A stretch of DNA of 64,000 nucleotides from the NCBI GenBank assembly GCA_036679645.1, contig JAZDCY010000042.1, forward strand, positions 96,001 through 160,000, read 5' to 3'. The position numbers and the translations under genes are program-made. Numbering within the stretch: position 1 is the first letter of the stretch; the number at the start of each line of letters is the position of its first letter. Shown here one piece after another: positions 20,033-58,406 of the stretch. Under the pieces are notes generated by a model. The model did no database searches and had not been told where the DNA came from. It worked only from the letters and a program-made list of their open reading frames with translations. This DNA comes from Gemmatimonadota bacterium (GTDB lineage: Bacteria > Gemmatimonadota > Gemmatimonadetes > Gemmatimonadales > GWC2-71-9).

Positions 20033-20089
20033 TGCTCCTCCACACGATGGGGAGACAGGCTTAGCATGAATGAAGCAACGGATGGGGAC

Positions 20090-20103
20090 GCAATCCTGGA
20101 GCC
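20090..20103 (-). promoter_or_regulatory. Putative sigma54 promoter of the TonB-receptor/XrtA-associated operon
   Basis: GGCTCCaggaTTGC (GG-N10-GC); the identical 14-mer is kept in the duplicated copy at 28315-28328. Confidence 0.5.
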
Positions 20104-20140
20104 CCCTGGCAACGACCATTCAGGAGTATGCAGTATCACA

Positions 20141-24055: not shown

Positions 24056-24934
24056 CTAGACCAACTCGCCTAGCAACCCCGGATCGGCGAGATCGTAGAA
24101 AATACCCGTATGTGCGATCACCATCCACTCGCCACGACTCCCGATATCCCACGTGAGGCTCATGCGGGGGCTGAACTTGCCGCGTGTCTCATCCAATGAG
24201 TCGTTCGCCAATCCGCTGCGCGCCAGGAACTCGGCGTTGGCGGGGATACTGGTCTGGGGGAGAAATTCCCATTCGTAGCGCAGCCCCACCTGCAAGTCGA
24301 GACCCGGCGCGAGTCTCCACCTGTCGTGGAGAAGGAGTCCCAACAACTGCGTGGAGAAACTCGAAATCGGAAGCGAGCCCACGGCCTGCGTGAACACACC
24401 GCTCCGAACGTCCAGATCGACAGCGCGCGAGAAAGCGAACTCGCCCGCACTCCCGAACGCGAAAGTCTGTTTCCAGGAGCTGAAATCTCCGTCCGCACCG
24501 AGCTTGATCTGACGCGTGCCGCTCCAGAGGTGAAACGTTTCGCGGGCGCGCACGGTCGATCTCTCGAATCTGGCCGGAAGACGTGCGTCACTCCCGAAGG
24601 CGATCGCCTCATCCACGATGCGGGTGGAAGGAATCGCGGCGGCGGCGTAGCCGCGTTGTCCGAACTCGAATCCCACGCGCGCCTCGTTTGCGAAGCCGGA
24701 GCCCCAATGCGACGTGAGTGCCGCAGTCGCGGCGAGATCGCTCCCCTCCAGGGTCGTCCCCGGCGTCCACGTCCCGTCAGGTCCCACATCCACACCGTCC
24801 CCGGCGACCGTCGCGAACTGCCCGCGCACGCTGAGCTGTTGCCCCTTGGCGAGGCGCCAGTCGAACCGGCCATAAACGGTGGCCGCGTCGGTTTTGCGGA
24901 TTTCGGTGACACGCGGTCGGAGGGCCGGTGCCAG
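24056..24934 (-). pseudogene. Internal fragment of a second copy of the TonB-dependent receptor
   Basis: Aligns to 18207-19072. By hand count about 42 substitutions plus a 3-aa insertion over about 290 aa (about 85% identity). No signal peptide and no C-terminal barrel half. Confidence 0.88.
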
Positions 24935-25239
24935 CGTTCCGACATCACACGCGCGACGCAAGGGTCGCGTTCAATTGCGCCGTTGTGATGTTGCGTGACT
25001 GCAACGTGTCAGATGAAGCGCTAGGGACCTGCGGAATCCTGGTCTCTCAGGCGCATCAGCGTCAGCGCGGTCAGGCCGTCGTGGGTTTCGTGTTGGGGGC
25101 GTGCTCCACGAAGTCCCGCGACAGGTGGTTGGTGATGCCAGACGGACGCGGGCCCGACCGTCGCGACCGCCAGCACCCTGGGGGGACCCCAACGATCCCA
25201 TGGGTCCGCATCAGGCGCGCAGCCCGCTGTGCAACAGTG

Positions 25240-28129: not shown

Positions 28130-28258
28130 GGGCGCACCCGCGAACGGCGCGCCAGCTGTGTAGATCACCGTTCCACGTATCGATCCGGCACTTATGCTCT
28201 GGGCTTCGAGCGGCGTTACGGCGCCGATGAGAGCGAGGGCTACGATGTAGTGCCGCAG
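28130..28258 (-). pseudogene. 5' stub of the second TonB-receptor copy
   Basis: LRHYIVALALIGAVTPLEAQSISAGSIRGTVI versus LRHYIVALALIGAAAPLEAQSITAGSLRGTVI; DNA 28130-28397 matches 19906-20169 including the upstream non-coding region; frame stops at 28091. Confidence 0.88.
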
Positions 28259-28314
28259 TGCTCCTCCAACAGATGGAAACACAGGTTTGACGTGAATGAA
28301 GCAACGGACGGGAT

Positions 28315-28328
28315 GCAATCCTGGAGCC
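28315..28328 (-). promoter_or_regulatory. Putative sigma54 promoter (duplicate of 20090-20103), now upstream of the MBOAT cassette
   Basis: GGCTCCaggaTTGC. Confidence 0.48.
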
Positions 28329-28366
28329 CCGTACCAGCGGCCCGGCAGAACCTCCACAGTATCACA

Positions 28367-28395
28367 CGTAAACGCATGTCATGCAAGGGGATGCG
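28367..28395. promoter_or_regulatory. 29-bp IHF-like element, copy 2
   Basis: CGTAAACGCATGTCATGCAAGGGGATGCG, 1 mismatch to copy 1. Confidence 0.5.
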
Positions 28396-28735
28396 TGCGT
28401 GACCACAGTCACGGCACTTACGTGCCCGACCCAGTCGTACCAATGATGTGGTATGATCGCTACAATATCCCCAGTACCTAGAGGCATGGGATCCGTAGGA
28501 CATAGCTGAGCCGCGATCCGTTGCACACCTCGTCCACCGCCCAGTGTCCCGTGCCGAAAAACCTGAAGCACCTACGACCAGAGCATGCATCTTGCGAGTG
28601 CGTGAGCGCTATCATGGTCACTCCGAATAGAACGCGCGCGCGTGAGAAACGGACGACACGCTCGGTAACGGTAGTCCCCGAGAGCCTCGTTGCGGCTCGC
28701 CACCCGAGTTCCTCCGTGCGCCCGGTCCGAATACG

Positions 28736-34207: not shown

Positions 34208-35272
34208 ATGAGCACAACAGTCGGGAGATCTGCGCGGTCTTCCTGGCTGCTGCCGGTGATCGTGGTCCTCATTACCACGGTCACACTCGTGCCCCAATTG
34301 CACCAAGCGACGTCTCCTCTTGGGTGCTTGCTCTGCGGGGAAGAAGGCCTTTCCGATGCCATCCGGAACGTCATTCTCTTCGCCCCTTTGGGAATCGCCT
34401 TGGCGGCGCGCGGCATGAAACTGTTCACCGCGCTGCTGTTCGGGGCGGCGTTTTCCATCGGCGTCGAGGGGGCGCAGTTCTTCAGGCTGCTCCAAGCTTC
34501 CCTGCCCCGGAGCCGCTACTTCGGACAGTGGACTCCCAAACTGCGTCACCTGGAGTGGTATCACGGGACGGTGCTGGACGCGTCGGTCGGCGGCACCCCG
34601 ATCCCTTCCTGGGAAATCGGTCCCTCGGCCGCGGTCCGCTCGTCGTTGCTGGACGGGGCCACCGTGCTCGTGCACGCGATCGCGGGACCACCCGTCCCCG
34701 CCCTCGGCTCTCTGTTCAGCATCACCGATCACCGACAGCGGGGCATCTTGCTAATCGGACCCAACCAGGACGACCTCGTCTTCCAGGTACGTCCGCGCGC
34801 CGCCGATGTTCTGCTGGATCACCCCAGCAGACGATTCCGTGGCGCGATGGACGGGGTCCATCCCGGTGACACGATCGTCGTTGTGGTGAGCGGCTCCGAT
34901 GACGCGATCTGCATCGCGCTGAACAATCGGCAGGACTGCAATGTTGGCTTCTCTGCCGGCGTGGGGTGGACGTTCATCCAGAACATCTCCGCGCTGCCAT
35001 CATGGGCCGAGAAAGCGATGAACGCGCTCTGGACCATGCTGCTCATGCTACCCTACGCATTTTGGGTCAGACGCGGGTGGCACGGCATCGTTGGAGCCGT
35101 CGTGATCCTCCTTGCCTTATCACTGGCTCCTGTCTTCGTACACCTCGAGCCGATGCGACCCGCGGTGTGGGCGGGCGCGATCATGGGCCTCACCCTCGGG
35201 CGGTTCCTCCAGAAACTGACGGCCCAATCGCAGCAACGGACCGCGTTGCCTGGCGGAAGCTCAGAATCATAG
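34208..35272 (+). CDS. Second VanZ-like protein carrying an in-frame 58-codon deletion (possibly non-functional)
   Basis: Paralog of 20226-21419; GVEGAQFF joins directly to RLLQASLP at about 34484. Confidence 0.78.
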   Translation: MSTTVGRSARSSWLLPVIVVLITTVTLVPQLHQATSPLGCLLCGEEGLSDAIRNVILFAPLGIALAARGMKLFTALLFGAAFSIGVEGAQFFRLLQASLPRSRYFGQWTPKLRHLEWYHGTVLDASVGGTPIPSWEIGPSAAVRSSLLDGATVLVHAIAGPPVPALGSLFSITDHRQRGILLIGPNQDDLVFQVRPRAADVLLDHPSRRFRGAMDGVHPGDTIVVVVSGSDDAICIALNNRQDCNVGFSAGVGWTFIQNISALPSWAEKAMNALWTMLLMLPYAFWVRRGWHGIVGAVVILLALSLAPVFVHLEPMRPAVWAGAIMGLTLGRFLQKLTAQSQQRTALPGGSSES

Positions 35273-43961: not shown

Positions 43962-45068
43962 ATGCGCACCGCGTTAGTTGGGCTCGGCAACGCCGGGTTC
44001 GATTTGCATCTGCCAGCGCTCGCAGCACTTCCGAATGCTGAAATCGTCGGAGCCTGCGATCTCGATGCCGACCGCCGTCGGCGCGCCGCCGAGCGGTGGG
44101 GAATCGCGGTCTTCGACGACCTGGACCTCATGCTGTCCGAGACGGCGCCGGAGGTTGTCATCGTCGCGACACCGCCGGACCACCACGCCGATCACTGCGC
44201 CCGGACGTTCGCAGCGGGCGCAGACGTGATCTGTGAGAAACCCTTGGCGCCGTCACTGGCGCAAGCTGACGAGATCCTTGCCGCTGCCGCGACGGCCGGT
44301 CGGCGCATCGCCGTGAACCACGAGTTCCGCGAAATGTGTATCATGCGCGCGGTTCGGGATCGGATCGGCCAGCCCGGCGTTGGCCCGCTGCGTTTCGTCC
44401 AAATCTGGCAGAACATGAACCTCCCGCCGTGGGACGAGCCCGGCTGGCGTGGGGAGTTAATGCAAGGGGTGCTCTTCGAGGCGGGCATACATCTCGTGGA
44501 TCTTGCCTTGGCGCTATTCGACGAGCGGCCGGTGGCGGTGTCCGCCACCGTCTCGACGGGCGGGACTCGCCCTGAGAAAACCGACGCTATCGCGGTCGCC
44601 ACGCTCGAGTTCTCGGACGGACGGTTGGCGAACGTCCTGCAGAACCGTCTCTGCCGCGGCGACACGCAATATTTCGAGGTCCGAGCGGACACGGAGGAAG
44701 CATCGCTTCGCGCGTCCTTCGGCGGGCGAGCCCGGCTCAGCGTCGGCCTCTTCCATAGCACCGCCCCGCACGCACGGATCGAGTACGGACCGGCCGGTAT
44801 CGCGTGGGGCGAACAGGGGGGACATCGGACGATGATCGCCCGCAACCCGCGCGACGCGGGCATGGTCGCAACTCGACGTCTCCTGGAAAAAACGCTCGAC
44901 GGCTTCCGGACCGGCGCTGCCGTGCCGGCCGACGGCCAGGCCGGGAAGGAAAGCCTGGAGGTCGTCGCGGCGTGTTACCACGCGGCAAAAACGGGTCGGC
45001 GGGTGGACCTGCACGGGGATGACCTTGCGCAGATCCGCTCCGTCCCCATCAGCCAGATGATTGGGTGA
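43962..45068 (+). CDS. Gfo/Idh/MocA family oxidoreductase
   Basis: VGLGNAG, VATPP..H, VICEKP, GIHLVD. Confidence 0.9.
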   Translation: MRTALVGLGNAGFDLHLPALAALPNAEIVGACDLDADRRRRAAERWGIAVFDDLDLMLSETAPEVVIVATPPDHHADHCARTFAAGADVICEKPLAPSLAQADEILAAAATAGRRIAVNHEFREMCIMRAVRDRIGQPGVGPLRFVQIWQNMNLPPWDEPGWRGELMQGVLFEAGIHLVDLALALFDERPVAVSATVSTGGTRPEKTDAIAVATLEFSDGRLANVLQNRLCRGDTQYFEVRADTEEASLRASFGGRARLSVGLFHSTAPHARIEYGPAGIAWGEQGGHRTMIARNPRDAGMVATRRLLEKTLDGFRTGAAVPADGQAGKESLEVVAACYHAAKTGRRVDLHGDDLAQIRSVPISQMIG

Positions 45069-45215
45069 CCGAGCGCGCAACCAGACCGCCACGGCGAAGC
45101 CGCGATGTTGCGCGCGTGCAACACATACGGGTCAGGCAGCTAACTGTTGGCATAAGCGCAGCCATCTTAGAGGAAAATGAGACCCCACCGGCACAGGTGC
45201 GTCGGTCGCGCTCTC

Positions 45216-46178
45216 CTAGACCGGTTCGCCCCGACCGTCTGACAACGGGTGTTTCGGCTCGTAGAGCATGTCGAGCACCAACGCCACCAATAGACACTGC
45301 ACACCAATGATGATCGGCAGTGCGGCGACAAACACCGTTCCCGCGGTCGCGGCGGTCGCCGTCGTGGACGAGTGCCACCAGCGAATCCCCCCGAACACGA
45401 CGCCAAACGTCACCGCAGGAACCCCAACCAGCACACACAGTGTCAGGACGTTGAAGTCTCGAAGGACGTAGCGCCAGATGAATCGGCGTAGCAGGCCTCG
45501 GACCTGCAGAGCCGGGAATTGCAGCAGGGTCCTGACGATGCTGAGCGAGCTGCCTTCGTCCGCGTAGCGCGCGGGGAGCGGGACGTCGCAAACTACCGCG
45601 CCGAGGATGTTCAGCTCGATGAGCATGCTTGTCTCGAAGAAGTAGCGACGCTGAACACGCTGCACTTCGAGCTGGCGCAGCACCGCGCTGCGGATCGCCG
45701 TGAACCCATTGGTGGGATCCAACAACGACCAGTAGCCAGAGACGAGTTTCGTGAGGAACGACAGAATGCCATTCCCGATCAGGCGGACCCGCGGCATCGT
45801 GCGGAGGGCCCCGAAGTCCCAGAACCGATTTCCTTTCGCGTAGTCCGCTCTTCCATCCAGGAGGGGAGCTACGAGCAAGGGCAGATCGCTCCCCGCCATC
45901 TGCCCGTCTCCATCCATCTTGACGCAGATGTCTGCACCGCGCGCCATGGCGGCTTCGTAGCCCGTGAGGGCCGCCGCCCCGACCCCTCTGTTGCGCTCGT
46001 GGAACACGCTCACGACACGGGGGTCGTCGATGCGATCCAGCGCCCCCCGCGAACCATCCCGGCTCCCGTCGTCAACGAGAACGATCGTCCGCACCATCGA
46101 GGGGATCCCCGCGACCACCTCGGCGATATGTCGCTCCACGTTGAAGCACGGGATCACCACGGCGATGTGCATGCTCAC
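45216..46178 (-). CDS. GT2, DPM-synthase-like polyprenol-phosphate glycosyltransferase
   Basis: VVIPCFN, VDDGS, NRGVG, KMDGDGQ, KGNRF, DPTNGF, two C-terminal TM helices. Confidence 0.9.
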   Translation of the reverse strand: MSMHIAVVIPCFNVERHIAEVVAGIPSMVRTIVLVDDGSRDGSRGALDRIDDPRVVSVFHERNRGVGAAALTGYEAAMARGADICVKMDGDGQMAGSDLPLLVAPLLDGRADYAKGNRFWDFGALRTMPRVRLIGNGILSFLTKLVSGYWSLLDPTNGFTAIRSAVLRQLEVQRVQRRYFFETSMLIELNILGAVVCDVPLPARYADEGSSLSIVRTLLQFPALQVRGLLRRFIWRYVLRDFNVLTLCVLVGVPAVTFGVVFGGIRWWHSSTTATAATAGTVFVAALPIIIGVQCLLVALVLDMLYEPKHPLSDGRGEPV

Positions 46179-47638
46179 GGGGGACTCACGTAGACGCGTA
46201 CCATCCCGTCTCCGATCGTGCCAGGGAACTCGCGCGCCACGTCATACTCGTCGTGAACGTGGCGATGGAGTGCCGAGTCGTGCACGGCCAGGAGCCGCTC
46301 CAGCGTTGTCACGAGCCACAAGCGCTCGTGGGAACCCTCGAGGGCCACGAGATCGTCCAAGGTTTCGACTTGCATGAAGGGCAAGCCATAGTCGCCTAGC
46401 ACGTGGCCCGCAAGATGAACACCGACTCTTGCGTCCCCCGGTGCGGCCAACGAATCAACGGCGGCGGCAGCGCCGAGGAAATCCTGTTTGGGGTACCGGT
46501 AGTAACGCGGGAGGGGGGCCGCCGACACGATCACCACCACAAACAGTGCAATTGCAGTCACGAGCCGCGTGGCGCTCTCGCGCACCGGCAGGCGCTCGGC
46601 GGCCGCCCGGACCACCAGGAACGCACCCATCCCGCCTACGAGATACACGACAGGCAGGGCCGTCGCAAAATACCTGGGGTGTATTCCCGCACCGGAGAGC
46701 ACGAGCGCTACGCCCTGCACGATGACCGGCGCAATGAGCACCAGCATGACAAGGATTCGCCTGCGCAGCCACCACACGAGACCGATCATGCCGATCGTCG
46801 ATGCCATCGCCAACCCCAGGACTCCGCCGAACGCCGCACTCAGTCCCTCGAACACCTCGGCGACCAGCCAAAGGCCGATACGCGGACCCTCTACCGGGCT
46901 CGCGATGTTCGCCCGGGTGTACGCAAGCAGCGAGCCGAGAAACGGCAGGTAGAGCAATACGGTCGCGACCGCCGCGGCTGCTGCACTCGTGACAAAAGGT
47001 AGGGTCGGCACGTTCACGTCCGCGCGTCGCGCTCGCTTCAGGAGCACGGCCCCGAGAACGACAACCGCATGTCCACCAACGACAAAAACGCCGAGGACAT
47101 TCGCATACGCTGCCAGCGCTCCGACGACGGCGTACGCCACCCACGGAGCGCGGGATTCGGGCCGTTGCCACGCCCTCAGCAAGAGGTGGGACGCTAACAG
47201 GTACAGGAAAATGAGGGCCGTGTAACCGCGGGCGTTTTGCGAGAAGAAGATGTGATGGTACGAGAGCGCGAACAGTCCAGTTGCAAAGAGCGCCGCACGC
47301 GGCTGAAGCGTGTGCTCTACCAACCGGTAGAGCACCCACACCCCTGCCACACCGAAGATCACCGCGGGCAGCCGTATGCCGATAGGGCTCTCGCCAGAGA
47401 CCAGGTACCCCACGTGGGCGAGGACCTCGTAGAGCACATGGGTCGTCGTACCGGGCCACTCGGTGAGGATTGCGCCAGTCGACCGACGGATACTGTTGAG
47501 CGCCGACATCTCGTCGAGCCACAGCTGGCTCCCGACTCGCACGAGCCGCAAGACGCCCGCGACCACAATGATCGCGACCAGCCAGATACCCACACCGCGG
47601 ACTTCTGCCGACTCGGCCTGCGACTTGGGCTGCGTCAT
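46175..47638 (-). CDS. GT-C fold membrane glycosyltransferase (PMT-like)
   Basis: LWLDE, IRLP...G, SQNARGY, PRY; multi-TM; start ATG 47638. Confidence 0.82.
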   Translation of the reverse strand: MTQPKSQAESAEVRGVGIWLVAIIVVAGVLRLVRVGSQLWLDEMSALNSIRRSTGAILTEWPGTTTHVLYEVLAHVGYLVSGESPIGIRLPAVIFGVAGVWVLYRLVEHTLQPRAALFATGLFALSYHHIFFSQNARGYTALIFLYLLASHLLLRAWQRPESRAPWVAYAVVGALAAYANVLGVFVVGGHAVVVLGAVLLKRARRADVNVPTLPFVTSAAAAAVATVLLYLPFLGSLLAYTRANIASPVEGPRIGLWLVAEVFEGLSAAFGGVLGLAMASTIGMIGLVWWLRRRILVMLVLIAPVIVQGVALVLSGAGIHPRYFATALPVVYLVGGMGAFLVVRAAAERLPVRESATRLVTAIALFVVVIVSAAPLPRYYRYPKQDFLGAAAAVDSLAAPGDARVGVHLAGHVLGDYGLPFMQVETLDDLVALEGSHERLWLVTTLERLLAVHDSALHRHVHDEYDVAREFPGTIGDGMVRVYVSPP

Positions 47639-47715
47639 CAATGGGCCTGTTGAACGGCGTTCATGTACTCTCGAGGATTGCGATACTCCGACGGTTGCGC
47701 TGAGGGGCGGGGGGC

Positions 47716-47729
47716 GCAAATACTACGCC
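47716..47729 (-). promoter_or_regulatory. Putative sigma54 promoter of the GT-C/GT2 pair
   Basis: tGGCGTAgtatTTGC, GG-N10-GC. Confidence 0.5.
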
Positions 47730-47819
47730 ACAGGCAGCAGGGCCGGTCCCGCGCTAGAACGCTGGTCCGAAAAATGCGCCCGCCTACCAAGGACCTTTCA
47801 ACTCGGAATTGTCAGAATA

Positions 47820-48131
47820 GTGACTACGTCGCGGGAAGAAGAAGAACAGGAAGCGCTCCACCGGGCGATTCGTCGCCTGAACGCGAGGGCGTGGGGGATC
47901 GCCATGGGCCTCCTCATGGGCGGTGGATTGTTTGTCGCGACGAATGTCCTTGTGCTGCGGGGAGGTAGGAACGTCGGGCAGCACCTGAGCCTCCTCTCCA
48001 TCTATTTCCCCGGATACCGCGTCACGTTTCTCGGGAGCCTGGTCGGGTTTGTCTACGCGTTCGTGATCGGCTACGCGCTGGGACGCCTTATCGGGACCCT
48101 GTACAACCGGCTGGTCGGACCGTCCGCCTGA
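47820..48131 (+). CDS. Small 2-TM membrane protein (homologue of 33703-34068)
   Basis: LNARAWGIAMG...LSLLSIYFPGYRVTFLGSLVGFVYAF..GY..G....LYN; GTG 47820. Confidence 0.75.
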   Translation: MTTSREEEEQEALHRAIRRLNARAWGIAMGLLMGGGLFVATNVLVLRGGRNVGQHLSLLSIYFPGYRVTFLGSLVGFVYAFVIGYALGRLIGTLYNRLVGPSA

Positions 48132-48233
48132 AGACCGACAACGCAGTGCCGATGCCGTTCGTCGACACTCTCCAGACCCGGCCGCCAAGTTCCTCCACGT
48201 CACGTTCAAGACGGAGGATGGCGCACTCCGTAC

Positions 48234-49232
48234 CTAGACCACGTGCGCCTTCTGCTGCTTCCTAGCGTAGTACTGATCTTTGATCCACGCATATGTCGGC
48301 ACCAGTCCCTCACGGAGCTTCGTGCTGGGCGCCCATCCCAGCAGGTCGAGGATCATCGAATTGTCGCTGTTCCGGCCGTTCACGCCCTTTGGGGCGTCGA
48401 GGTTGTAGCGACGCCCGACCTCGATGCCGGCAATGTCGGCGATTATTTTCGCGAGACCGTTGATGGTGACCAACTCATCCGACCCGAGGTTGATGGGCTC
48501 TCCGATGTCACTGTCCATGATCCTGAGGATGCCCTCGATACAGTCATCGATGTACATGAAGCTCCGGGTTTGTTCTCCGTCGCCCCAGATCTCGATGTTG
48601 CGATCTCCAGTGTCCTTCGCCTGAATGATCTTTCGGCAGAGCGCAGCAGGGGCCTTTTCTCGCCCTCCATCCCACGTTCCATGGGGCCCATAGACGTTGT
48701 GGAAACGGGCCACACGCGTGTGCATGCCAAAATCCTCGCGGAAATGCCGACACATGCGCTCTGAAAAGAGCTTCTCCCAACCATAGCCGTCCTCGGGCAT
48801 GGCGGGGTACGCGTCTGATTCCTTGAGCGGCTTGACGTTGGGATCCATCTGCTTTTCGGCGGCGTAGACACACGCCGACGAGGAATAGAAATACCGCTGT
48901 GCATCGGCGTCTCGGCTGGCCATTAGCATGTGCGTGTTGATGAGCACCGAGATCATGCAGAGGGCTTTGTTGCTCTCGATGAACCCCATGCCGCCCATGT
49001 CGCAGGCGAGGGTGTAGACGTCCGACGCCCCCTTCGTGGCTTGACGACATGCGTCGAGGTCGCGCAGATCGAGTTGGAGGTTTTCCGCATCCGGAAGCAC
49101 CTGATACCACTGCTCAAACGGCTTGATGTCGATGCTTCGCACGTTCGCTCCAGCCTTCAGGAGGGCACCCACCAGATGTCCACCGATGAACCCACCTCCT
49201 CCTCCGACAACCACCAGGTCGTTTGCTTCCAT
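48234..49232 (-). CDS. GDP-mannose 3,5-epimerase-like NAD-dependent epimerase
   Basis: GGGGFIG, LACDMGGMGFI, YSSSACVY, DAYPAMPEDGYGWEK, RFHNVYGPHGTWDGGREKAPAALCRK, GVNGRNSDN. Confidence 0.85.
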   Translation of the reverse strand: MEANDLVVVGGGGGFIGGHLVGALLKAGANVRSIDIKPFEQWYQVLPDAENLQLDLRDLDACRQATKGASDVYTLACDMGGMGFIESNKALCMISVLINTHMLMASRDADAQRYFYSSSACVYAAEKQMDPNVKPLKESDAYPAMPEDGYGWEKLFSERMCRHFREDFGMHTRVARFHNVYGPHGTWDGGREKAPAALCRKIIQAKDTGDRNIEIWGDGEQTRSFMYIDDCIEGILRIMDSDIGEPINLGSDELVTINGLAKIIADIAGIEVGRRYNLDAPKGVNGRNSDNSMILDLLGWAPSTKLREGLVPTYAWIKDQYYARKQQKAHVV

Positions 49233-49307
49233 GCGGCCTCGCCCTACCGGTTTGGGCCTGTTGAAAGACGATCTCGCGGCCCCGGGCGGGCCACGTCAAT
49301 CCGATTC

Positions 49308-49321
49308 GCAAGTCGCGTTCC
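49308..49321 (-). promoter_or_regulatory. Putative sigma54 promoter of the epimerase
   Basis: tGGAACGcgacTTGC; identical 14-mer at 54075-54088. Confidence 0.7.
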
Positions 49322-49379
49322 ACTCATCGAGCCGCCCATACGCCCGCTCGGCAGATGGACCAGGGCCGTGACCGAGTGT

Positions 49380-49393
49380 GGAACAGAACTTGC
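49380..49393 (+). promoter_or_regulatory. Putative sigma54 promoter of the GT2-GT10 gene
   Basis: tGGAACAgaacTTGCt; identical 14-mer at 54168-54181. Confidence 0.7.
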
Positions 49394-49670
49394 TTTTTCG
49401 CGCCCGGCAACTCGTTGTGGATTAGGCATTTGGGTGCGGTTCGGGTTTGTTGGGGTACTCTACCTCCAGTCGAAGCGACGCCCGCCGGTAATCATCAGCT
49501 CTCCCACGAACCTGCTCGATGCACCGCGGTCCACTCGCGGGAGCGATCAGCACAGGCGGGCGGACCACGACTAACCCGGGGGCACTTGCCGGCTCTCAAG
49601 GTCGACCCGCGGTGTTCGTGCGCGCTCGCAGCAAGACAGTCGAGAACGGAACTTGCCTCTCGAGAATACC

Positions 49671-51851
49671 GTGACGACGAGTCCGAGCAGCCTGCCCCGG
49701 CCCGCTATCGCCATAGCGGCGTTCAACGCCGAGCGCTACCTGCCGAAGGCCCTCGAGACGATGCTGAGCCAGAGCCTCGAGGCCGCCGAGATCGCGGTCT
49801 GCGATGACGCGTCAACCGACCACACGCCGGAAATCCTCGCGGACTTCGCCTCCAGCAACGCGGGTATCCGCGTGATTCGCAACGAAGAGAGCATGGGCGG
49901 CTACGGTGCGATGAACCGCGCCGTGCGTGAGACGCGCGCCGATTACGTGGCCGTCTACCACGCCGACGACGTCTACCACCCGACAATCCTGGAGCAGGAG
50001 GTCGCCTACCTCGAGGCGCATCCCGCCGCTGGCGCGGTGCTCACTCTGGATTGGTTCATCGATGCCGACGGACACGAATACGACCGCGTCCGCCTGCCGC
50101 GCAGACTCCAGGACGTGACATCGTTTGATGCGCGGACGCTGACAGAGGCCATGCTTCGAAGCAAGTGCACGTTTCTCAGAACGCCCTCGGTGATGTTCCG
50201 CCGCTCGGCGTTCGACGCGGTTGGAGGGTTTGATCAAGAACAGTTCGGTATCTCTGCCGACGTCGACCTCTGGCTGCGCCTCTCGCTGGAGTACGAGATT
50301 GGTCTCTTGCACGAGTACCTTTACGGGTACCGACATCACTCTCGACAGTGGTCCGACGCGTACAGCAAACTGCGGACGACCCCCGAACTATTCTTCGCTG
50401 TGTTGGACAAACACTTGTCTCGGCCTGGGGTACGCGCACTTGTCACGCGCGAAGCCCTTACGCTGTATCGCATCTGGCAAGTCAAGGACGAGACCGAGCG
50501 CGCCGCCAATATTCTCCTGCTGGGTGATCACACGAAGGCGGTGGCACTTGTCAACTCGTCTTTCGTGCGACCGTTGTTACGCTCGTCACGGAAGTGGACC
50601 GTGCTGCGAATTCTCGCTTTGCGCTCCCTGGTGCGGTTGGCAGCTGCGGTCGGTGGCGGGCGTACTGCCCGCGCGGCCGTGTATATGGCCCGCTTCCGGA
50701 GGTGGTTGCCACGCCGGCTCGCCGCTCAGTCGGGGACCGCGGCGCAGACCCTCGCAGCGGAACCAACGGAGGACGACGGACACAAACGGCCATCCGCTCG
50801 GCCACGGCTTACCGTCTTTCTCGATCCCTTCTCGACGCACTTCTACGGTGACGGGATCTTCGACCCGGCGGCCAAGGTCAATCGGGACAACTTCCTGAGC
50901 CCGTGGCACCACCTGCACGACCGTTTCCGCGAACGGGGTGTTGAGATTCACACCGCTGACTACTTGGTGGACCGTACTCGACGGGCGGAGGTGAACGTCT
51001 ACTCGTCCTTCGGCGTCTTGGATCACTATCGCGATCTGGCGAAGCGACCGGATGTACTGCTCAATGCATTCTATCTGTTTGAGGTCATGGTGTTGGCCCC
51101 GGAGATGTACCGAGCGATCCCCGACCTCACACAGTACTTTCGATCGCTGTACTCCTGGACCGACGCCGATCACCTCGCGCCGTTTGTCTCTGGCCCCGTA
51201 ACGGTCAAGCCGTTCTTCATGCCGATGCCTCGCGACACCGTCATTGAACCGTACTGGTCGCGGACGGACCGCAACGGCATCGTACTCATCGCGGCGAACA
51301 AACGCGCGGTGGTCCCGCAGGGCGAGCTCTTCACCGAGCGCCTTCGGGCCATAAGACACTTCGCTAACCATGGCGGGATTCACATCTGGGGGCGCTGGTG
51401 GAACGAGCGGATCATGGACCTGGATGAAGAGTTTCGCGACCCGGTCCGGCGATCCTACCAAGGTGCCGCTGCCGAGAAGTACGATGTCTTGAGCCGGTAT
51501 CGCTTCGCCGTCTGCTACGAAAACATGGCACTCCGCGGCTGGATCACCGAGAAGATCTTCGACTGCTTCTACGCCGGGACCGTCCCCGTTTACCTCGGAG
51601 CGCCCGACATCACGGACCACGTCTCGAAAGATTGCTTCATCGACTTTGAGCAATTCGGAACATACGACGAGCTGAGTCGATTCATCGACCAGCTCGGCCC
51701 CCGCGAGCTCGAAGCGTACCGCGAAGCGGGACGCGACTGCCTCGCGAGCGAGGCCTTCGATCCGTTCAAACCGAAGAGCTTCGCCGATCGCTTCATCGCC
51801 GACATCGAAGCACAGCTGCGGGAGCACGCCTTAGAGCACGTCTGGCCATGA
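49671..51851 (+). CDS. Fusion: GT2 + GT10 (alpha-1,3/4-fucosyltransferase-like)
   Basis: N-terminal CDDASTD, YHADD, GGFD, DVDLWLRL; C-terminal KYDVLSRYRFAVCYEN...GWITEKIFDCFYAGTVPVYLGAP (GT10 motif). ORF is open from 49653. Confidence 0.85.
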   Translation: MTTSPSSLPRPAIAIAAFNAERYLPKALETMLSQSLEAAEIAVCDDASTDHTPEILADFASSNAGIRVIRNEESMGGYGAMNRAVRETRADYVAVYHADDVYHPTILEQEVAYLEAHPAAGAVLTLDWFIDADGHEYDRVRLPRRLQDVTSFDARTLTEAMLRSKCTFLRTPSVMFRRSAFDAVGGFDQEQFGISADVDLWLRLSLEYEIGLLHEYLYGYRHHSRQWSDAYSKLRTTPELFFAVLDKHLSRPGVRALVTREALTLYRIWQVKDETERAANILLLGDHTKAVALVNSSFVRPLLRSSRKWTVLRILALRSLVRLAAAVGGGRTARAAVYMARFRRWLPRRLAAQSGTAAQTLAAEPTEDDGHKRPSARPRLTVFLDPFSTHFYGDGIFDPAAKVNRDNFLSPWHHLHDRFRERGVEIHTADYLVDRTRRAEVNVYSSFGVLDHYRDLAKRPDVLLNAFYLFEVMVLAPEMYRAIPDLTQYFRSLYSWTDADHLAPFVSGPVTVKPFFMPMPRDTVIEPYWSRTDRNGIVLIAANKRAVVPQGELFTERLRAIRHFANHGGIHIWGRWWNERIMDLDEEFRDPVRRSYQGAAAEKYDVLSRYRFAVCYENMALRGWITEKIFDCFYAGTVPVYLGAPDITDHVSKDCFIDFEQFGTYDELSRFIDQLGPRELEAYREAGRDCLASEAFDPFKPKSFADRFIADIEAQLREHALEHVWP

Positions 51852-51885
51852 CACGTCGGCACCCCACGCTCCCGGAGATAGCTGA

Positions 51886-53082
51886 ATGACGCGTACGCGT
51901 GTCCTCGTCCTCGCCCGGAACTATCCCAATCCCGTATTGCCAACACTCGGGATCTGGACGGATCGCCTGACCCAAGCCGCGCAACACGTCGCCGATACGA
52001 CAGTGATCGCACCGATTCCGTGGTCTCCCCCGGGACTACCTGTCGAGTACTTCAGTCGCTTCCGCAAGGTCCCGAGGCGACGCGACGAAAGCGGTGTGCC
52101 GGTCCACCATCCGAGGGTCCTCACCGGACCCGGGTATTCCCTGCACCAGTTCGAGGCTGACCTCTGGTACCGACCCATCCGGCAGCTTGCCGCGCGGCTG
52201 CACGCGGCTCGGGCATTCGACATCATTCATGCGCACTTCATCTATCCGGAAGGCGTCATTGCGGCGAGGCTCTCCGAACACCTCGGCCTTCCCGTCGTAA
52301 CCACCGAGCAGGCGCCGTGGGACCCGTGGCTCAAGAGGTATCCTCGCGTCGGGAAACAAGTCCGCGCTGCCCTGCCCGCGATTCAGCGCGTGATGGCGGT
52401 AAGTGAGTTCTTGCGCAGGAACATCCACAGCGCGATCCCCAACATGCAGGTTCCGGTCGACGTGGTCCACAATGTCGTCGACGACAGCGTCTTCGACATC
52501 CGCAACGGCGAAGATGCATGGGATCCGGACCGGCTACTCTTTGTAGGGGTTGTCCGTCGCGTGAAGGGCCTCGATGTCCTCGTCCGCGCATTGCACCGCC
52601 TCGTAGAACACCGCCCCACGCTTCGTCTCGTAGTAGTAGGTGCCGCGTATTACCGTGGCTACGCACGAGATGAAGCCGAAGTGCGCGGACTGGTAGATCA
52701 ACTTGGGCTCATGAACCACGTCACGTGGGTCGGCCAGGCTCAGCCATCCGAGGTCGCGACGCACATGCGACGGAGCGCGGTAGTCGTGGTACCCAGCCGA
52801 AGCGAGACGTTCTCGGCAGTCACCGCAGAGGCCCTGGCAAGTGGGACACCGGTGGTCGCCACCCGCTGCGGAGGGCCCGAGGAGATCGTGACCCCTGAGA
52901 CCGGGTGCCTCGTGCCCAAGGAGGATCCGGCCGCCCTCGCTGACGCGATCGACGAGATGCTGCGGCGACGTCCCTCCATTGCCGGAGCGAGCCTACGACA
53001 ATACGCCGTCGCCCAGTTTGGGCGCGCCACCGCAACTCGCCGGCTGGGAACTCTGTACGATCGCGTGTTGGGAATCATCTGA
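51886..53082 (+). CDS. GT4 glycosyltransferase (TuaC-like)
   Basis: FDIIHAHF.YP.G, FVG....KG, PSRSETF...AEALASGTPVVAT. Confidence 0.9.
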   Translation: MTRTRVLVLARNYPNPVLPTLGIWTDRLTQAAQHVADTTVIAPIPWSPPGLPVEYFSRFRKVPRRRDESGVPVHHPRVLTGPGYSLHQFEADLWYRPIRQLAARLHAARAFDIIHAHFIYPEGVIAARLSEHLGLPVVTTEQAPWDPWLKRYPRVGKQVRAALPAIQRVMAVSEFLRRNIHSAIPNMQVPVDVVHNVVDDSVFDIRNGEDAWDPDRLLFVGVVRRVKGLDVLVRALHRLVEHRPTLRLVVVGAAYYRGYARDEAEVRGLVDQLGLMNHVTWVGQAQPSEVATHMRRSAVVVVPSRSETFSAVTAEALASGTPVVATRCGGPEEIVTPETGCLVPKEDPAALADAIDEMLRRRPSIAGASLRQYAVAQFGRATATRRLGTLYDRVLGII

Positions 53083-53191
53083 CTATCGCGATGGGCAGTC
53101 GCGAACGCTAGGGCGACAACTCGTCGCAGCTCGGCATGAGGCTAGCACGTCCCGCTCAGAGAACGTTGCAAGTCCGAATGGGCGCAGCCAT

Positions 53192-53213
53192 ACAACAGGT
53201 GTTACCCTGTTGT
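53192..53213. terminator. Hairpin between convergent genes; possible bidirectional terminator
   Basis: ACAACAGG-tgttac-CCTGTTGT, 8-bp perfect stem, no clear U-tract. Confidence 0.35.
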
Positions 53214-53230
53214 GCCACCGAACTGGAAAT

Positions 53231-54064
53231 TCATCGGGTGGGGGGTGCCCGCTCGGCGACACAGCACCACCGATGGGTATAAAAGTCGATACTCGGGTCA
53301 CTCCAAGCATGGAAGCGCGAGAGGAATGGCCGAGCAATCCGGTCCGCCAAGCGGCCCACTACCGCGAGGAGCCCCGTCCAGATTACCGGGAGGTGGGAGT
53401 AGCGGCGCCATATGGCCGGTATCCGGCCAATCTCCTGTGCGAGGAAGTCAAAGAATCCGTCGTCTCCAGCAGGCTCCAACGTGATCACCGCAAACCCGAG
53501 CCGAGGCAGCCAGTGCTCGTACCAATACCGAGCGAAGCCAGTGTGGAAGTGGTACGGCGAGAAGTGGGTGAACGAAACGAAGGGGGCTGTCAGGATCAGT
53601 CGGCCACCGGGCCGCAGCAACCTCGCCATTTCGCGGACCGCGCCGATTGGATCCGGGACGTGCTCCAGAACTTCCGTACAGAGAATGGCGTCGAAGGACC
53701 CGTCGGGTTCAGGAACGTCCATCACGTCGCACACCAGGTCGATACCGGACTGATCGAACGTGCCGGTCTGCAGGCCTGCTCCGTCTCCTCGCCCGTCATA
53801 GCGACCGAAATCCTGCGAAACGTAATGGAGGTGGGCGCAGGCGGGACGGAATCGAAGCTCACCTGCCCCCACGTCGAGCAGGCGCCATCCAGCAGGCAGG
53901 GCCTCCAACTGTGCCGAAACCCACGCCGCTCGGTCGGCGTCGTTTCGACGCCCAATCGAACGGGTCGCCATTACGATCCTTTGATTTGCAACGTCCGGCC
54001 ACCTCACCCCAAGCGGTTTCCATGCGTCGCGGAAGAAGCCAATCACTTTGACGCGTTTCGCCAC
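53231..54064 (-). CDS. Class I SAM methyltransferase
   Basis: LLDVGAGE, SFDAILCTEVLEHVPDP, LLRPGG, TAPF; start may be a downstream ATG (MATRS). Confidence 0.88.
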   Translation of the reverse strand: MAKRVKVIGFFRDAWKPLGVRWPDVANQRIVMATRSIGRRNDADRAAWVSAQLEALPAGWRLLDVGAGELRFRPACAHLHYVSQDFGRYDGRGDGAGLQTGTFDQSGIDLVCDVMDVPEPDGSFDAILCTEVLEHVPDPIGAVREMARLLRPGGRLILTAPFVSFTHFSPYHFHTGFARYWYEHWLPRLGFAVITLEPAGDDGFFDFLAQEIGRIPAIWRRYSHLPVIWTGLLAVVGRLADRIARPFLSRFHAWSDPSIDFYTHRWCCVAERAPPTR

Positions 54065-54074
54065 ATAGGCGGTC

Positions 54075-54088
54075 GCAAGTCGCGTTCC
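54075..54088 (-). promoter_or_regulatory. Putative sigma54 promoter of the methyltransferase
   Basis: GGAACGcgacTTGC. Confidence 0.7.
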
Positions 54089-54167
54089 TACACGCGACTC
54101 GCGGTTGGTTCCCAGTGCCCCTATCGTCTCGCGCCCTGCACGTGCCCGGAATCATAACGCGTTCTTG

Positions 54168-54181
54168 GGAACAGAACTTGC
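54168..54181 (+). promoter_or_regulatory. Putative sigma54 promoter of the flippase
   Basis: GGAACAgaacTTGC. Confidence 0.7.
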
Positions 54182-54349
54182 CCCTTCCGGGCGCGCGTCC
54201 ACCCAGCCTATTCCTACGTGCATGAGGCACAAGGAGCAGATTGCCCATCGGCCGTGATGCTTGCGCACGTGCTGCTTCAGGGAGCGGCTAACGATGAACA
54301 AGGCAGCCGCTGATCGCTTTGTTCGCGACGTCGATACCCATCTCCACGA

Positions 54350-55882
54350 GTGCGGGCTGAACCGGCCGTGGAACTGAACAGCCCGAGGACGGCAGCCAAG
54401 GGGGGCGCGGCCCCGCAGGCGTTCCAGCCGCTCCAGGCCATCATCGGGCTGGGCGCCATCCAAGCCGGTACGATGCTAGCCGGCCTTCTGCGTACCAAGG
54501 TGCTCGCGTTGCTGCTCGGCCCTGATGGGCTGGGGATCGTTGGCGTAATCGATCAGACCGTGGCCTTCTTCACGCACCTGGGCACCCTCAGCCTACCGCT
54601 TGCGGCGTTGAAGTTCCTGTCCAAGCGGAAGAGCGCAGGGATGGAAGCGTTCGCGCGGCTGTACCGAGCATTCCTCATGTCGCTCCTCGTCGCGAGCGTC
54701 CTCTCGACTGCGCTTGGCGTGGCACTCGCCTTCGCGCGGACCGGGGTCCTGTCGGACGAGCTCTCCCCTCATCGTACCGCGCTGATACTCGGGCTGCTGA
54801 CTGCCGCGCCGCTTGCCGTGGTGGCGCTGTTGCGCAATGTCCTCGCTACGCTCGAACGCTACCGGGCCGCCGCCCTGGTGGCACTCTTCGGCGCCGTGCT
54901 CCTCGTCGGCAGCTCGTACGCCGGTGTTCGGCTCGTTGGACTGCCAGGTCTCTACGTGGGAAACCTCGTGGTGCATACTATGTTGGCGGTACTTCTGATG
55001 GGGCTCATCCGGCGGGTCCCTGGTATGGGGACGCCCTCTCCCGGACCGGGCACGGTGGGCATCCTCCGGAGCGAGCGGGGATTGATCAGCTTTTGCACGA
55101 GCATCCACTTCCTCTCCTTGGCGTCGCCACTTGCGTACCTGGTCGCGCGCGTCACCATCCTATCGCATCACGGGGCGGAGGCGGCCGGCTTGTTCTACGC
55201 GGCATACGGCCTCGCCGTGGCAATTCGTGTAGTCCTAAACCAGGCCAACGGTCTCTACCTCAGCCCTATCGTGAACGAGAGCACCCCCAAGAACGTCCGG
55301 GCAGCCAAGGCCGGCGAGTATATGAGGGTTTTGATGGTGATCTTGGTGCTGGGCGCGGCTGCGGTCGCGCTCTTCCCGCAGCTGTTTCTCATAGCGCTCT
55401 ACTCGAAGCGTTTCCTGCCAGCCGGCGCATTCCTAGGCGCGTTCCTCGTTTCCGAAGCGATCCTGCTCGTCGCAGGCGTGTACCAGGCACTTCTCATAGG
55501 ATTCGACGACATTCGCTCACACGTCGCCATCTCGCTTGCTGGCAACGCTATCATTGCGGGCGTATCGCTGGCGCTGGTTCCGTCACAGGGACCGCTGGGC
55601 GCTGCGCTGGCGTTCATAGCGGGCCACACATTGATACTGCTGCTGACTGCCGGACGCCTTCAACACGCGCACGGCGCGCGCGGCGCCATGAAACCGTTCT
55701 CGCTCCTCCTGCTCGGCTTGCTCGTCCTTGCCCTCGGAGCGCTCTGGACGACGCGCGTCGATCCCCCGTTCGTGTGGAGAGCGTTGGCATACGTCGGCGT
55801 CGCAGTGGGTGCGCTGAGCCTGCTCAACGCTCACGAACGACGCTGGATACTCGCGCCCTGGCGCTCAACCCGGAACCAGTGA
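54350..55882 (+). CDS. Wzx-type oligosaccharide flippase (MOP superfamily)
   Basis: RTKVLALLLGPDGLG, G...AGLF.AA, LYS..F, G..GAALA; about 12-14 TM helices. Confidence 0.82.
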   Translation: MRAEPAVELNSPRTAAKGGAAPQAFQPLQAIIGLGAIQAGTMLAGLLRTKVLALLLGPDGLGIVGVIDQTVAFFTHLGTLSLPLAALKFLSKRKSAGMEAFARLYRAFLMSLLVASVLSTALGVALAFARTGVLSDELSPHRTALILGLLTAAPLAVVALLRNVLATLERYRAAALVALFGAVLLVGSSYAGVRLVGLPGLYVGNLVVHTMLAVLLMGLIRRVPGMGTPSPGPGTVGILRSERGLISFCTSIHFLSLASPLAYLVARVTILSHHGAEAAGLFYAAYGLAVAIRVVLNQANGLYLSPIVNESTPKNVRAAKAGEYMRVLMVILVLGAAAVALFPQLFLIALYSKRFLPAGAFLGAFLVSEAILLVAGVYQALLIGFDDIRSHVAISLAGNAIIAGVSLALVPSQGPLGAALAFIAGHTLILLLTAGRLQHAHGARGAMKPFSLLLLGLLVLALGALWTTRVDPPFVWRALAYVGVAVGALSLLNAHERRWILAPWRSTRNQ

Positions 55883-56040
55883 TACTGAGAAGATCCTAGT
55901 TGCCGGTCTAGGTGGACATTGTGGGGCAGGAAAGCCAGCGTGCGCGTACGGCTCGGAAACGCCTGCGGGTGCTGCGCGGGGGGGGAACACTCGTGGACGA
56001 GTGGTCGAAGAGCGAATGCATCTAGACCAGGTACCTCACG

Positions 56041-57159
56041 CTAGAGCGTGCGTCGTTGCGCCACTTCCCACAATGCATCCATCGTCTCTTCGGCGGTCCG
56101 CCGCCATGTGAACCGCGCTGCGCACTCCCTACCTGCCCGGCTGAGCTGCTCTCGGAGATCCGGTTCCGTCACAACCTGGGTAATCGCGTCCCGCAGAAGC
56201 TCGTGCGTGGGCTGTTCCAGCACCAGGGCGTGCTCACGGAATCCCTCACGCAAGGGCGCGTGGTCGACGGTCACGACCGGGGTACCGCAGGCCATCGCCT
56301 CCAAAATGGTTGCCGAGAGCCCTTCGTGTGTCGTCGGAAGGAAGAACGCGGTCGCTCCGGAGTACGCGGAGGCTAGATCGTCCTGTTCGAGGTGCGGGAT
56401 ATGGGTGACGCGGTCGCCGGTTTTCGTTTCCGCGACGTGCCGGTCGAAGTCGAGATTCACGTGGTTCGGCCCGACAAAGACGAACCGCGTCTCATCCGGC
56501 AACCTCCGAGCATCGCTGAACGCCCGTAGCAGCCCCGGAACATTTCGCCGATGCGACATCTTGCCGACGAACAACAGGTACGGACCGTCGTGTCCCACGA
56601 CCGCGGCTGCTCGACGGGCAACGATCTCGCGATCGTCCTGCCACCCGAACGGCGGCCCGACGCCTTGGTAGACGATGCGGATCTTGTCGGGGTCAGTGCC
56701 GTAGTACTCGACGAGGTCGTTCTTGGTCGAGATGGAATTGGCGAGCACCAGATCCGCGCGCCGCGCACTAGCCTTGTACATCGCCGAGTACCGATAGCGA
56801 TACCACCACGGGACGCGCTCGGCGTTGGGGCCTTCGTAGATTCCCTGGATACTCACAACCGAGCGCCCCCTGAAACCCAGTGGAATCGTATACGACGCCC
56901 CAAAGAGGATGTCGTCCGACCAGAGTGCCCGCCGCAACGTGACGTTCTCCCAGTAGAAGACCGGCAAGCGGGTCGGAAGCACCACGTGCTGCAGCGTTGG
57001 AGGGTTTGTCCACCGGTGCGCCGTTGAGGCAGGCGTGTAGCACCGCACCTCCTCGAACGGGACCGGTGCCGCCGCCCACTGGTGGAGCATGTGCTCGAGC
57101 CACCGGGCCGGGCCGGTTCGGGCCTGGACGAGCCGCTTTCCGTCTATTCCTAGACGCAT
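56041..57159 (-). CDS. GT4 glycosyltransferase
   Basis: MRLGIDG, TG..R, LFVG....RN, PTTHEGL...LEAMACGTPV, FTW. Confidence 0.9.
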   Translation of the reverse strand: MRLGIDGKRLVQARTGPARWLEHMLHQWAAAPVPFEEVRCYTPASTAHRWTNPPTLQHVVLPTRLPVFYWENVTLRRALWSDDILFGASYTIPLGFRGRSVVSIQGIYEGPNAERVPWWYRYRYSAMYKASARRADLVLANSISTKNDLVEYYGTDPDKIRIVYQGVGPPFGWQDDREIVARRAAAVVGHDGPYLLFVGKMSHRRNVPGLLRAFSDARRLPDETRFVFVGPNHVNLDFDRHVAETKTGDRVTHIPHLEQDDLASAYSGATAFFLPTTHEGLSATILEAMACGTPVVTVDHAPLREGFREHALVLEQPTHELLRDAITQVVTEPDLREQLSRAGRECAARFTWRRTAEETMDALWEVAQRRTL

Positions 57160-57172
57160 ATTGGGGTGACTG

Positions 57173-57186
57173 GCAAAACTCGTTCC
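57173..57186 (-). promoter_or_regulatory. Putative sigma54 promoter of the GT4 gene
   Basis: GGAACGagttTTGC, GG-N10-GC. Confidence 0.6.
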
Positions 57187-57299
57187 CAGGCAACAAGATA
57201 GGAACTGACTGGCGCCGGGCCGCGCGAGTGGCCGGGAGCATGCCTCTTGCACCGCCACGGGGCAGGGTCATGGTCGTCACCCAATCACCCACGTGGAAC

Positions 57300-58406
57300 A
57301 TGCGCGTTGCCGTCGTCGGACTCGGAGAAGCCGCAGTCGGTCTTCACCTCCCCGCCCTGGCCCGGATCTCATCGGCGTCACTCGCGGGCGTTTTCGATAC
57401 GGACACCGATTGCAGCACCGCCGCGGCGCGCCGGTTCGGGGTCCCGGCCTTTGAGTCGTTCGACCGGCTCCTGGAAATAGCACGTCCGGAAGTCGTCGTT
57501 GTCGGTACACCCCCGAGGTTCCACGAGGAATACTGTCTGACGAGCCTCGATGCCGGGGCACACGTGATCTGCGAGAAACCCTTCGCAACGAGCGTCGCCG
57601 AAGCCGACCGCATCATCGCCGCCGCCGGTCGCGCCGACCGCATGGTCGCGCTGAATCATGAATTCCGCGAGATGCCGATTTTCCGGGCGCTCCATACTGC
57701 GGTATCGGACGGGAGCGTCGGTGATCTGGTCTTCGCCCAGCTATGGCAAAACGTGGACATGCCACCCTGGAACGAAACAGGGTGGAGGGGCGCGTTGCGT
57801 CACCGTACCCTGTTCGAAGCCGGCGTGCATCTCGTGGACCTCGCCATCACGCTCTTTCGGGAGCTTCCGATATCGGTTTGGGCCATGACGTCGGGCGCGG
57901 GAGGCAACGGCCGAGTCGACGCGATCGTGATCCTCACGCTCGAGTTCTCCGGCGACCGCGTCGTGCAAATCATCCAGAATCGCGTTTGCCGCGGCGAGAA
58001 CCAATACCTGGAGGCTCGGGTCGAGGGCACGCTGGGGTCTCTGCGCGCCTCATTCGGCGGTCGGGCACGCGTGAGCTTGGGCTTGCTGCGCAGCACCACG
58101 CCGCACCTCCGGCTCGAGTTCGGCGCTTCTGGTGTGGCGTGGCGAGAAACGGGAACGAAACGAACCGTCATCGGTCGCAATTCGAAGGACCCCGGCATGG
58201 AGGCGACACGCTCCCTCTTCGCCGACACGTTGAGCGCCTTCGCGCAGGGCAGCGTTCCTCCTGTGAGTGCGGCCGACGCTCGTGACATGATACAGATCAT
58301 CGCGGCCTCATATCTCAGTGCCGAGCGCGGTCGTCGAATCTCCCTCACCGACACTGATGCGATGCGTAGTGTGCACGAGTTCGATCTCGGAGCGACCGGA
58401 CCGTGA
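57300..58406 (+). CDS. Gfo/Idh/MocA oxidoreductase (close paralog of 43962-45068)
   Basis: VGLG, GTPP..H, VICEKP, NHEFREM, WQN...PPW.E.GWRG, SFGGRAR. Confidence 0.9.
   Translation: MRVAVVGLGEAAVGLHLPALARISSASLAGVFDTDTDCSTAAARRFGVPAFESFDRLLEIARPEVVVVGTPPRFHEEYCLTSLDAGAHVICEKPFATSVAEADRIIAAAGRADRMVALNHEFREMPIFRALHTAVSDGSVGDLVFAQLWQNVDMPPWNETGWRGALRHRTLFEAGVHLVDLAITLFRELPISVWAMTSGAGGNGRVDAIVILTLEFSGDRVVQIIQNRVCRGENQYLEARVEGTLGSLRASFGGRARVSLGLLRSTTPHLRLEFGASGVAWRETGTKRTVIGRNSKDPGMEATRSLFADTLSAFAQGSVPPVSAADARDMIQIIAASYLSAERGRRISLTDTDAMRSVHEFDLGATGP

Follow-up and report, generated by a model that had tools for sequence, protein, structure and literature searches.

Outward-facing pairs of sigma54 promoters that share one intergenic gap have been described in enterobacteria, for zraP/zraSR and hyc/hyp (PMC4987338; PMC3844500). 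Variation at the -24 element has also been reported: the sigma54 consensus given for Campylobacter jejuni reads GGaa-N6-tTGCTt (PMC3847290), and GGAAC-headed sites are bound by sigma54 in Escherichia coli (PMC4591121). Here, we analyse two divergent intergenic regions of a Gemmatimonadota bacterium (assembly GCA_036679645.1) that carry the same back-to-back pair of 14-mers. Both are located in a stretch of 64,000 nucleotides (nt) of contig JAZDCY010000042.1 (positions 96,001 to 160,000), hereafter the window, whose numbering is used unless a contig is named; it forms part of the contig labelled G000:C38 (C38 in the following) in the scanned genome of 4,049,736 bases. Judging from their letters and genomic setting, the four 14-mers are very probably sigma54 promoters. 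We see about an even chance that both regions go back to a single divergent promoter pair, copied in the distant past as the locus was reshuffled, and that selection on the spacer bases is exerted by the sigma54 holoenzyme itself.

The repeated pair and its sigma54 signature

On the minus strand, the left motif, GGAACGCGACTTGC, occupies 49308-49321 and 54075-54088; the plus strand carries the right motif, GGAACAGAACTTGC, at positions 49380-49393 and 54168-54181. As a preliminary description of this DNA had reported, the copies are exact, stand in the same order in both regions and face away from each other across gaps of 58 nt (region 1) and 79 nt (region 2). Each 14-mer has exactly two copies in the genome; with one mismatch permitted, the left motif gains two places and the right motif none. 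Identity between the regions ends at the motif borders, exactly so at three of the four edges, while the left match extends by 2 nt, to 16. Alignment of the middles, and likewise of the flanks, of region 1 and region 2 does not exceed that of dinucleotide shuffles (p 0.15-0.97); a true duplicated region of the same locus, taken as positive control, does align (p 0.005). The DNA between the motifs thus shows no similarity by this test, in line with the first description, and a recent duplication of the whole regions is not supported. The locus has 43 intergenic regions, which share 10 exact matches of at least 14 nt against 0.86 expected; seven of the ten fall in the clearly duplicated region used as control. 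The repeated pair is beyond chance, and neither noise nor recent duplication accounts for it. A contig from a public sequencing run covering 47500-58000 shows zero differences, which counts only against a local assembly slip because this run is possibly the source sample; two sister runs give no coverage of the regions.

The sites and the genes behind them are the following:

49308..49321, minus strand: site A1, GGAAC-GCGAC-TTGC, predicted sigma54 -24/-12 promoter of the epimerase gene, predicted RNA start about 49296
49380..49393, plus strand: site B1, GGAAC-AGAAC-TTGC, predicted sigma54 promoter of the GT2-GT10 and GT4 genes, predicted RNA start about 49405
54075..54088, minus strand: site A2, same letters as A1, predicted promoter of the methyltransferase gene, predicted RNA start about 54063
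54168..54181, plus strand: site B2, same letters as B1, predicted promoter of the Wzx-like flippase gene, predicted RNA start about 54193
48234..49232, minus strand: NAD-dependent epimerase/dehydratase, GDP-fucose-synthase-like, under the family cut-off
49671..51851, plus strand: GT2-GT10 fused glycosyltransferase
51886..53082, plus strand: GT4 glycosyltransferase
53231..53971, minus strand: S-adenosylmethionine-dependent methyltransferase, start predicted at ATG 53971
54368..55882, plus strand: Wzx-like polysaccharide flippase
49643..49656, plus strand: third similar site, AGAAC-GGAAC-TTGC, 14 nt upstream of the GT2-GT10 start codon, which would give a leaderless RNA
57173..57186, minus strand: GGAAC-GAGTT-TTGC, left half of a third back-to-back pair (gap 50, without the palindrome discussed below), 13 nt upstream of a GT4 start codon
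57237..57250, plus strand: AGCAT-GCCTC-TTGC, weaker sigma54-like motif, right half of the third pair
54074..54103, no strand: inverted repeat overlapping A2, with 12-nt arms, one mismatch and a 6-nt loop, not in region 1; 3/300 shuffles reach it

The four genes facing the sites (epimerase, GT2-GT10, methyltransferase and Wzx-like) are those originally named. The inventory of four sites stands as well, but it had missed the site at 49643 and the third pair at 57186/57237; for the methyltransferase, ATG 53971 is a more likely start than the GTG at 54064. Sites A1, B1, A2 and B2 are intergenic and lie 75, 277, 103 and 186 nt from their gene starts, all inside a limit of about 300 nt, a weak test since a divergent gap faces a gene either way.

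All four 14-mers read GG-N10-GC, have TTGC at -12 and keep the exact spacing of the signature. There is one rpoN in the genome, with a canonical RpoN box, and 15 strong matches to sigma54 activators. At the head of the locus (C38:61378-62940), an intact REC-AAA-HTH activator of the NtrC type, with GAFTGA and HTH_8, is adjoined by a histidine kinase, a priming sugar transferase and an exosortase. This activator is kept in 30/40 relatives at E < 1e-150. The combination of rpoN with an NtrC-type activator at the head of an exosortase/polysaccharide locus makes sigma54 promoters likely. In 2054 upstream regions (own gene calls), GG.AC-N5-TTGC occurs 25 times, compared with 4-9 times at nine other spacings; six of the eight GGAAC-N5-TTGC sites upstream of genes fall inside 16 kb here. 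In the loci of 80 relatives, GGCAC-N5-TTGC is enriched (45 vs 7-20). The signature recognized in the preliminary description thereby gains indirect support from rpoN, the activators and the enrichment of the motif at the right spacing. An ECF-type -35 element (extracytoplasmic function; GAACTT) was rejected on inspection, which shows no shared -10. A sigma70 scan, with 0 sites against 1.6 expected, was uninformative.

Start-proximal sites form a group of their own. Of 32 GG.A[CT] sites found close to start codons in the same 80 loci, 17 precede the codon by 13-15 nt, and two GAAC-headed sites of the gene block studied here (49643 and 57186) show a spacing of 13-14 nt. Such sites predict leaderless sigma54 transcripts. 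Eleven of the 17 belong to one orthologous gene; sites of this type were recorded in front of the XrtA deacetylase in loci L005-L053.

Some results weigh against the sigma54 assignment. Unfiltered, GGAAC-N5-TTGC is not enriched genome-wide (35 vs 31-58), and the 13-15 nt peak is seen neither genome-wide here nor in 13 other regions (0/13). Moreover, a GGAAC site at 65211 is better explained as the joint of two palindromes, so that the motif alone can mislead. The two palindromes stand in tandem, 20 bp apart, just beyond the window end (C38:161186-161223), and their joint mimics GGAAC-N5-TTGC, a trap for sigma54 scans. The idea that the 14-mers are joints of two enhancer half-sites fits 65211 and was rejected for the four sites.

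The window is part of a polysaccharide locus that spans well over 100 kb and includes XrtA-associated genes; TIGR03006 and TIGR03019 have matches above cut-off in it, and an exosortase of the EpsH family is also present. The closest relatives of a locus protein are for the most part Gemmatimonadales, the order to which the host likely belongs. The GC content at third codon positions of the block is not clearly unusual, so that no donor is claimed. Further duplicates of several ages occur within the locus (65-83% identity). They include a TonB-receptor gene duplicate, about 82% identical and split in two (17072-20119, 24056-24961 and 28133-28400), whose copied promoter and gene start now have an unrelated MBOAT gene behind them; VanZ-like genes (72-80%; 20277-21232 / 34259-35043); and Gfo/Idh/MocA genes (65%; 44214-44813 / 57552-58148). 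In addition, an Ig-like-domain gene contains a tandem repeat of 288 nt (92%; 2999-3286 / 3308-3595). An exact 13-mer, near chance, stands just upstream of a PMT-like gene and of the epimerase (47642-47654 and 49253-49265).

A candidate enhancer and divergent pairs in related genomes

Upstream of relatives' sites, TGT-N12-ACA occurs in 17/87 of the intervals searched (2.4 expected) and could be refined to the palindrome TGTTGC-N6-GCAACA. A matrix built from relatives only finds 40 intergenic matches in the present genome, 13 of them on C38, which holds 5.8% of the intergenic bases (p 2e-7). The palindrome stands upstream of the activator gene in 18/25 loci (L168-L192, this genome included) and within the gene in 0/25. 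We infer from this placement that it may be the binding site (enhancer) of the locus activator, and it is a candidate mark of a polysaccharide regulon of Gemmatimonadales. Plain genome-wide counts fall under the reversed control in most of 41 genomes; support for the palindrome is hence positional only. A conserved activator, a candidate enhancer and predicted leaderless sigma54 transcripts would together make a testable regulon in Gemmatimonadota, which is the more useful by-product of this work. No study of such a regulon in Gemmatimonadota was found in the literature covered, most subscription journals lying outside that coverage, and the available part of PMC12316311 does not mention Gemmatimonadota.

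Both regions and the third pair are without the palindrome (best scores 4.0, 2.5 and 2.0, vs at least 11 elsewhere in the locus), and the two regions hold no TGT-N4..16-ACA. The copies closest to A1 are:

45106..45123, no strand: nearest intergenic palindrome, 4.2 kb from A1 in a convergent gap; score 21.3; candidate distant enhancer
45989..46006, no strand: palindrome 3.3 kb from A1, located within a GT2 gene; score 17.7

Other nearest copies start at 56525 (weak) and 65186. Enhancers are reported to be able to act over 1.5-3 kb (PMC3844500). Palindromes were recorded at 3899, 20220, 24001, 24989, 28447, 34202 and 45106 in the window and at C38:61139, 74200, 88052 and 161186. The words most enriched upstream of the sites in relatives do not include a TTTACA-ending motif, although no search with its own matrix was made.

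Back-to-back sigma54 site pairs number 16 in 82 polysaccharide loci of relatives, compared with 0-5 at control spacings. A second set, made of stretches of 13 genomes, two of which overlap the 82-locus set, contains 6 pairs in 4 regions (0-1 in controls). The palindrome accompanies 14/16 pairs in the training loci, a partly circular count, and 6/6 in the 13-genome set. Gaps of relatives' pairs range over 20-200 nt, with no evident phase on inspection. The notion of a reusable bidirectional module therefore holds for the back-to-back design, which recurs in relatives, but not for its sequence: the exact version is present in 0/60 other genomes and a slightly looser one in 0/400 of the phylum. 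A looser pattern for strict back-to-back pairs at such spacing occurs in 4/400 genomes, as does the control (4/400). GT2-GT10 was matched in 1/150, Wzx in 1/200 and the epimerase in 11/200 family genomes, none with the present sites upstream, several of these loci being cut short or mid-operon; in one relative, GT2, GT10 and GT4 homologs lie within an operon without these sites.

A metagenome scan gave four matches. Three were dropped because they are centred in long perfect palindromes, likely assembly fold-backs. The one retained (L120:86-166) is a GGAAC-headed back-to-back pair with a gap of 53, upstream of a wza-like polysaccharide export gene, whose named relatives are Steroidobacteraceae. 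Each of its sites is 13/14 identical to a site here; the search pattern fixed 11/14 bases per side, and the match is a lead only. Viral contigs yielded 0 matches by the tight pattern and 5 by the loose one, and the L120 wza has no viral relative. Elsewhere in the present genome, a pair with a gap of 78, a GGAAC head on the minus side and a palindrome at 7063 (C84:7088-7180) separates flavin-reductase-like and malate-synthase-like genes, named from reading their translations. We found no paper on repeated sigma54 core pairs, again with most subscription journals outside the coverage.

Origin and maintenance of the identical spacers

From the sites of this genome, two sites would share five spacer bases by chance about once in 420 cases, and from relatives' sites about once in 150; both sites would match by chance in about 1e-5 to 1e-4 per region pair. 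In relatives, identical within-locus site pairs amount to 0/110 (82 loci) and 0/239 (stretches of 13 genomes). As chance identity is rare and relatives lack identical pairs, common descent is the likelier origin of the repeated pair.

Several observations nevertheless weigh against a copied and conserved pair. No trace of homology is left between the regions to prove a copy by shuffle-tested alignment, and no ortholog of either region was found, the DNA of 5 relatives giving short coding matches only. Orthologous sigma54 promoters with comparably diverged flanks (0.26, 0.34) share the 14-mer in 5/317 pairs; at this rate, both sites would stay identical about once in 3000 cases under ordinary selection, with the proviso that the pairs are not independent. 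In E. coli, spacer positions are reported to evolve 8.6 times faster than the core (PMC4591121). The 5/317 rate and the fast spacer change in E. coli indicate that descent alone is insufficient and that something held the spacer bases.

In the reading that we favour, the holoenzyme would be that something. The strength of sigma54 promoters alters when the spacer is randomised (PMC12096077), and if spacer bases tune strength, selection by the holoenzyme would act on them. The identity stopping at the motif edges points to the holoenzyme footprint. The sigma54 holoenzyme would bind each 14-mer facing outward and await an activator; after the copying event, the genes behind the promoters would have been exchanged and the unbound DNA would have diverged, while all bases beneath the footprint would have been retained, since spacer bases set promoter output. 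As no enhancer is near, activation might come from a distant palindrome (45106, 45989 or 65186), from solution, or through another of the approximately 15 activators, and the absence of a local enhancer would raise the dependence of output on the core sequence. Mutants of the nifH spacer reportedly relieve enhancer dependence, and nothing here rests on them. Selection on the spacer, as first suggested, is thus plausible in view of the low sharing among orthologous promoters. The extra factor then proposed to read the spacer found no positive evidence: no additional motif common to both regions was found, 60 relatives show no enrichment of the GGAAC-N3-ACTTGC class (41 matches vs about 70 in the reversed control), and spacers alone alter strength (PMC12096077). 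An extra spacer-reading protein is not needed in the favoured reading.

Alternatively, the identity could be neutral, with short tracts copied between or within the regions by template switching or gene conversion and the sites still serving as promoters. The inverted partial copy of A2 beside A2 (12-bp arms; 3/300 shuffles), the 11/14 likeness of the A and B motifs as an inverted repeat and the many duplicates in the locus would all fit such copying. We nevertheless regard it as unlikely, as two separate tracts must both end at motif edges in both regions, no further converted patch was detected and 14-16 nt is short for homologous recombination.

Independent origin, by convergence on a local preference (RGAAC-R-N-R-AC-TTGC) with the exact identity partly owed to the luck of a large scan, appears improbable too. 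The site at 49643 fits this pattern, and the L120 pair resembles the sites here at 13/14 each; however, L120 was retrieved by fixing 11/14 bases per side, relatives show no excess of the GGAAC-N3-ACTTGC class, strict pairs at such spacing stay at control level, and the spacers differ between left and right, which a single shared optimum would not predict.

It seems distinctly unlikely that the spacers of both sites are read by a second protein, be it a repressor or a non-standard activator that makes up for the missing enhancer. Such a protein would account for a spacer identity greater than in orthologous promoters and for three block pairs without the palindrome, against 14/16 and 6/6 relatives' pairs with it. 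The two gaps, of 58 and 79 nt, differ in length by 21 nt, or two helical turns (a coincidence with a chance of roughly one in four), and fall inside the 32-92 nt range reported between PEP-CTERM enhancers and promoters (PMC1569441). Yet the block contains no regulator gene, the two spacers have only AC in common and form no dyad, no other motif is shared, neither word has a further copy in the genome, and relatives' gaps show no evident phase. Equally unlikely is a class of back-to-back sigma54 promoters that needs no enhancer: the core 14-mers would carry specificity, a second protein or the holoenzyme at the opposite site would read the spacer in place of an enhancer, and the pair would serve as a portable two-way module for new polysaccharide genes, with the L120 pair upstream of wza as a look-alike. 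If true, it would break the rule that the specificity of sigma54 promoters comes from a separate enhancer.

A non-promoter origin of the motifs is very improbable. They would then be the ends, inverted and imperfect, of a very small mobile or recombination element whose middle varies; the motifs do form an inverted repeat, the genome has many short intergenic repeat families and direct repeats bracket a 4.8 kb three-gene unit. However, a MITE or REP-like element would be expected in many copies, with target-site duplications and a strong hairpin, whereas there are 2 copies only, no target-site duplication was seen and folding is unremarkable (z -1.4 to -1.7). In addition, no Rfam match exists, the joints shown for public-run contigs include none at these places, the bases conserved are precisely those of the sigma54 signature, and single like sites stand 13-14 nt upstream of start codons. 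The intergenic gaps of this genome are rich in 7-8-base tandem units arranged as inverted arms, in many families (C58:72639, C68:5005, C73:11194).

If an ancient copy held by the holoenzyme is the right explanation, the two regions would be a small natural example of sigma54 spacer bases held by selection, and would illustrate the reuse of promoter pairs as polysaccharide loci reshuffle, which is useful rather than surprising.

Comparison with described systems

As in zraP/zraSR and hyc/hyp, where one activator serves both promoters, two outward sigma54 promoters share one gap here. In those systems the activator is known and, for hyc/hyp, the enhancer is defined, whereas here the gap is without an enhancer and the same core pair occurs twice (PMC4987338; PMC3844500). 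The GGAA heads of C. jejuni (PMC3847290) and the GGAAC sites of E. coli (PMC4591121) share with our sites GGAAC instead of GGCAC at -24; in the present genome this head is local, concentrated in 16 kb (6/8 upstream sites), and not a genome-wide consensus.

The PrsK/PrsR control of PEP-CTERM genes in Proteobacteria (PMC1569441) shares with this locus the exosortase-linked polysaccharide setting, a REC-type sigma54 activator and the arrangement of an enhancer with a -24/-12 site. It differs in that no activator here reaches the PrsR cut-off (TIGR02915; 0/45 matches pass, the best at 400 of 503 bits and the locus activator at 373), the candidate enhancer is TGTTGC-N6-GCAACA and not TTTACA-ending, and the host belongs to Gemmatimonadota. 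The pairs of other Gemmatimonadales have the same layout, the same kind of locus and the activator conserved in 30/40 relatives. Unlike the pairs described here, they mostly combine the palindrome with GGCAC or GGTAC heads and are never letter-for-letter repeats. The case is real and unusual in detail, and it is of a known kind.

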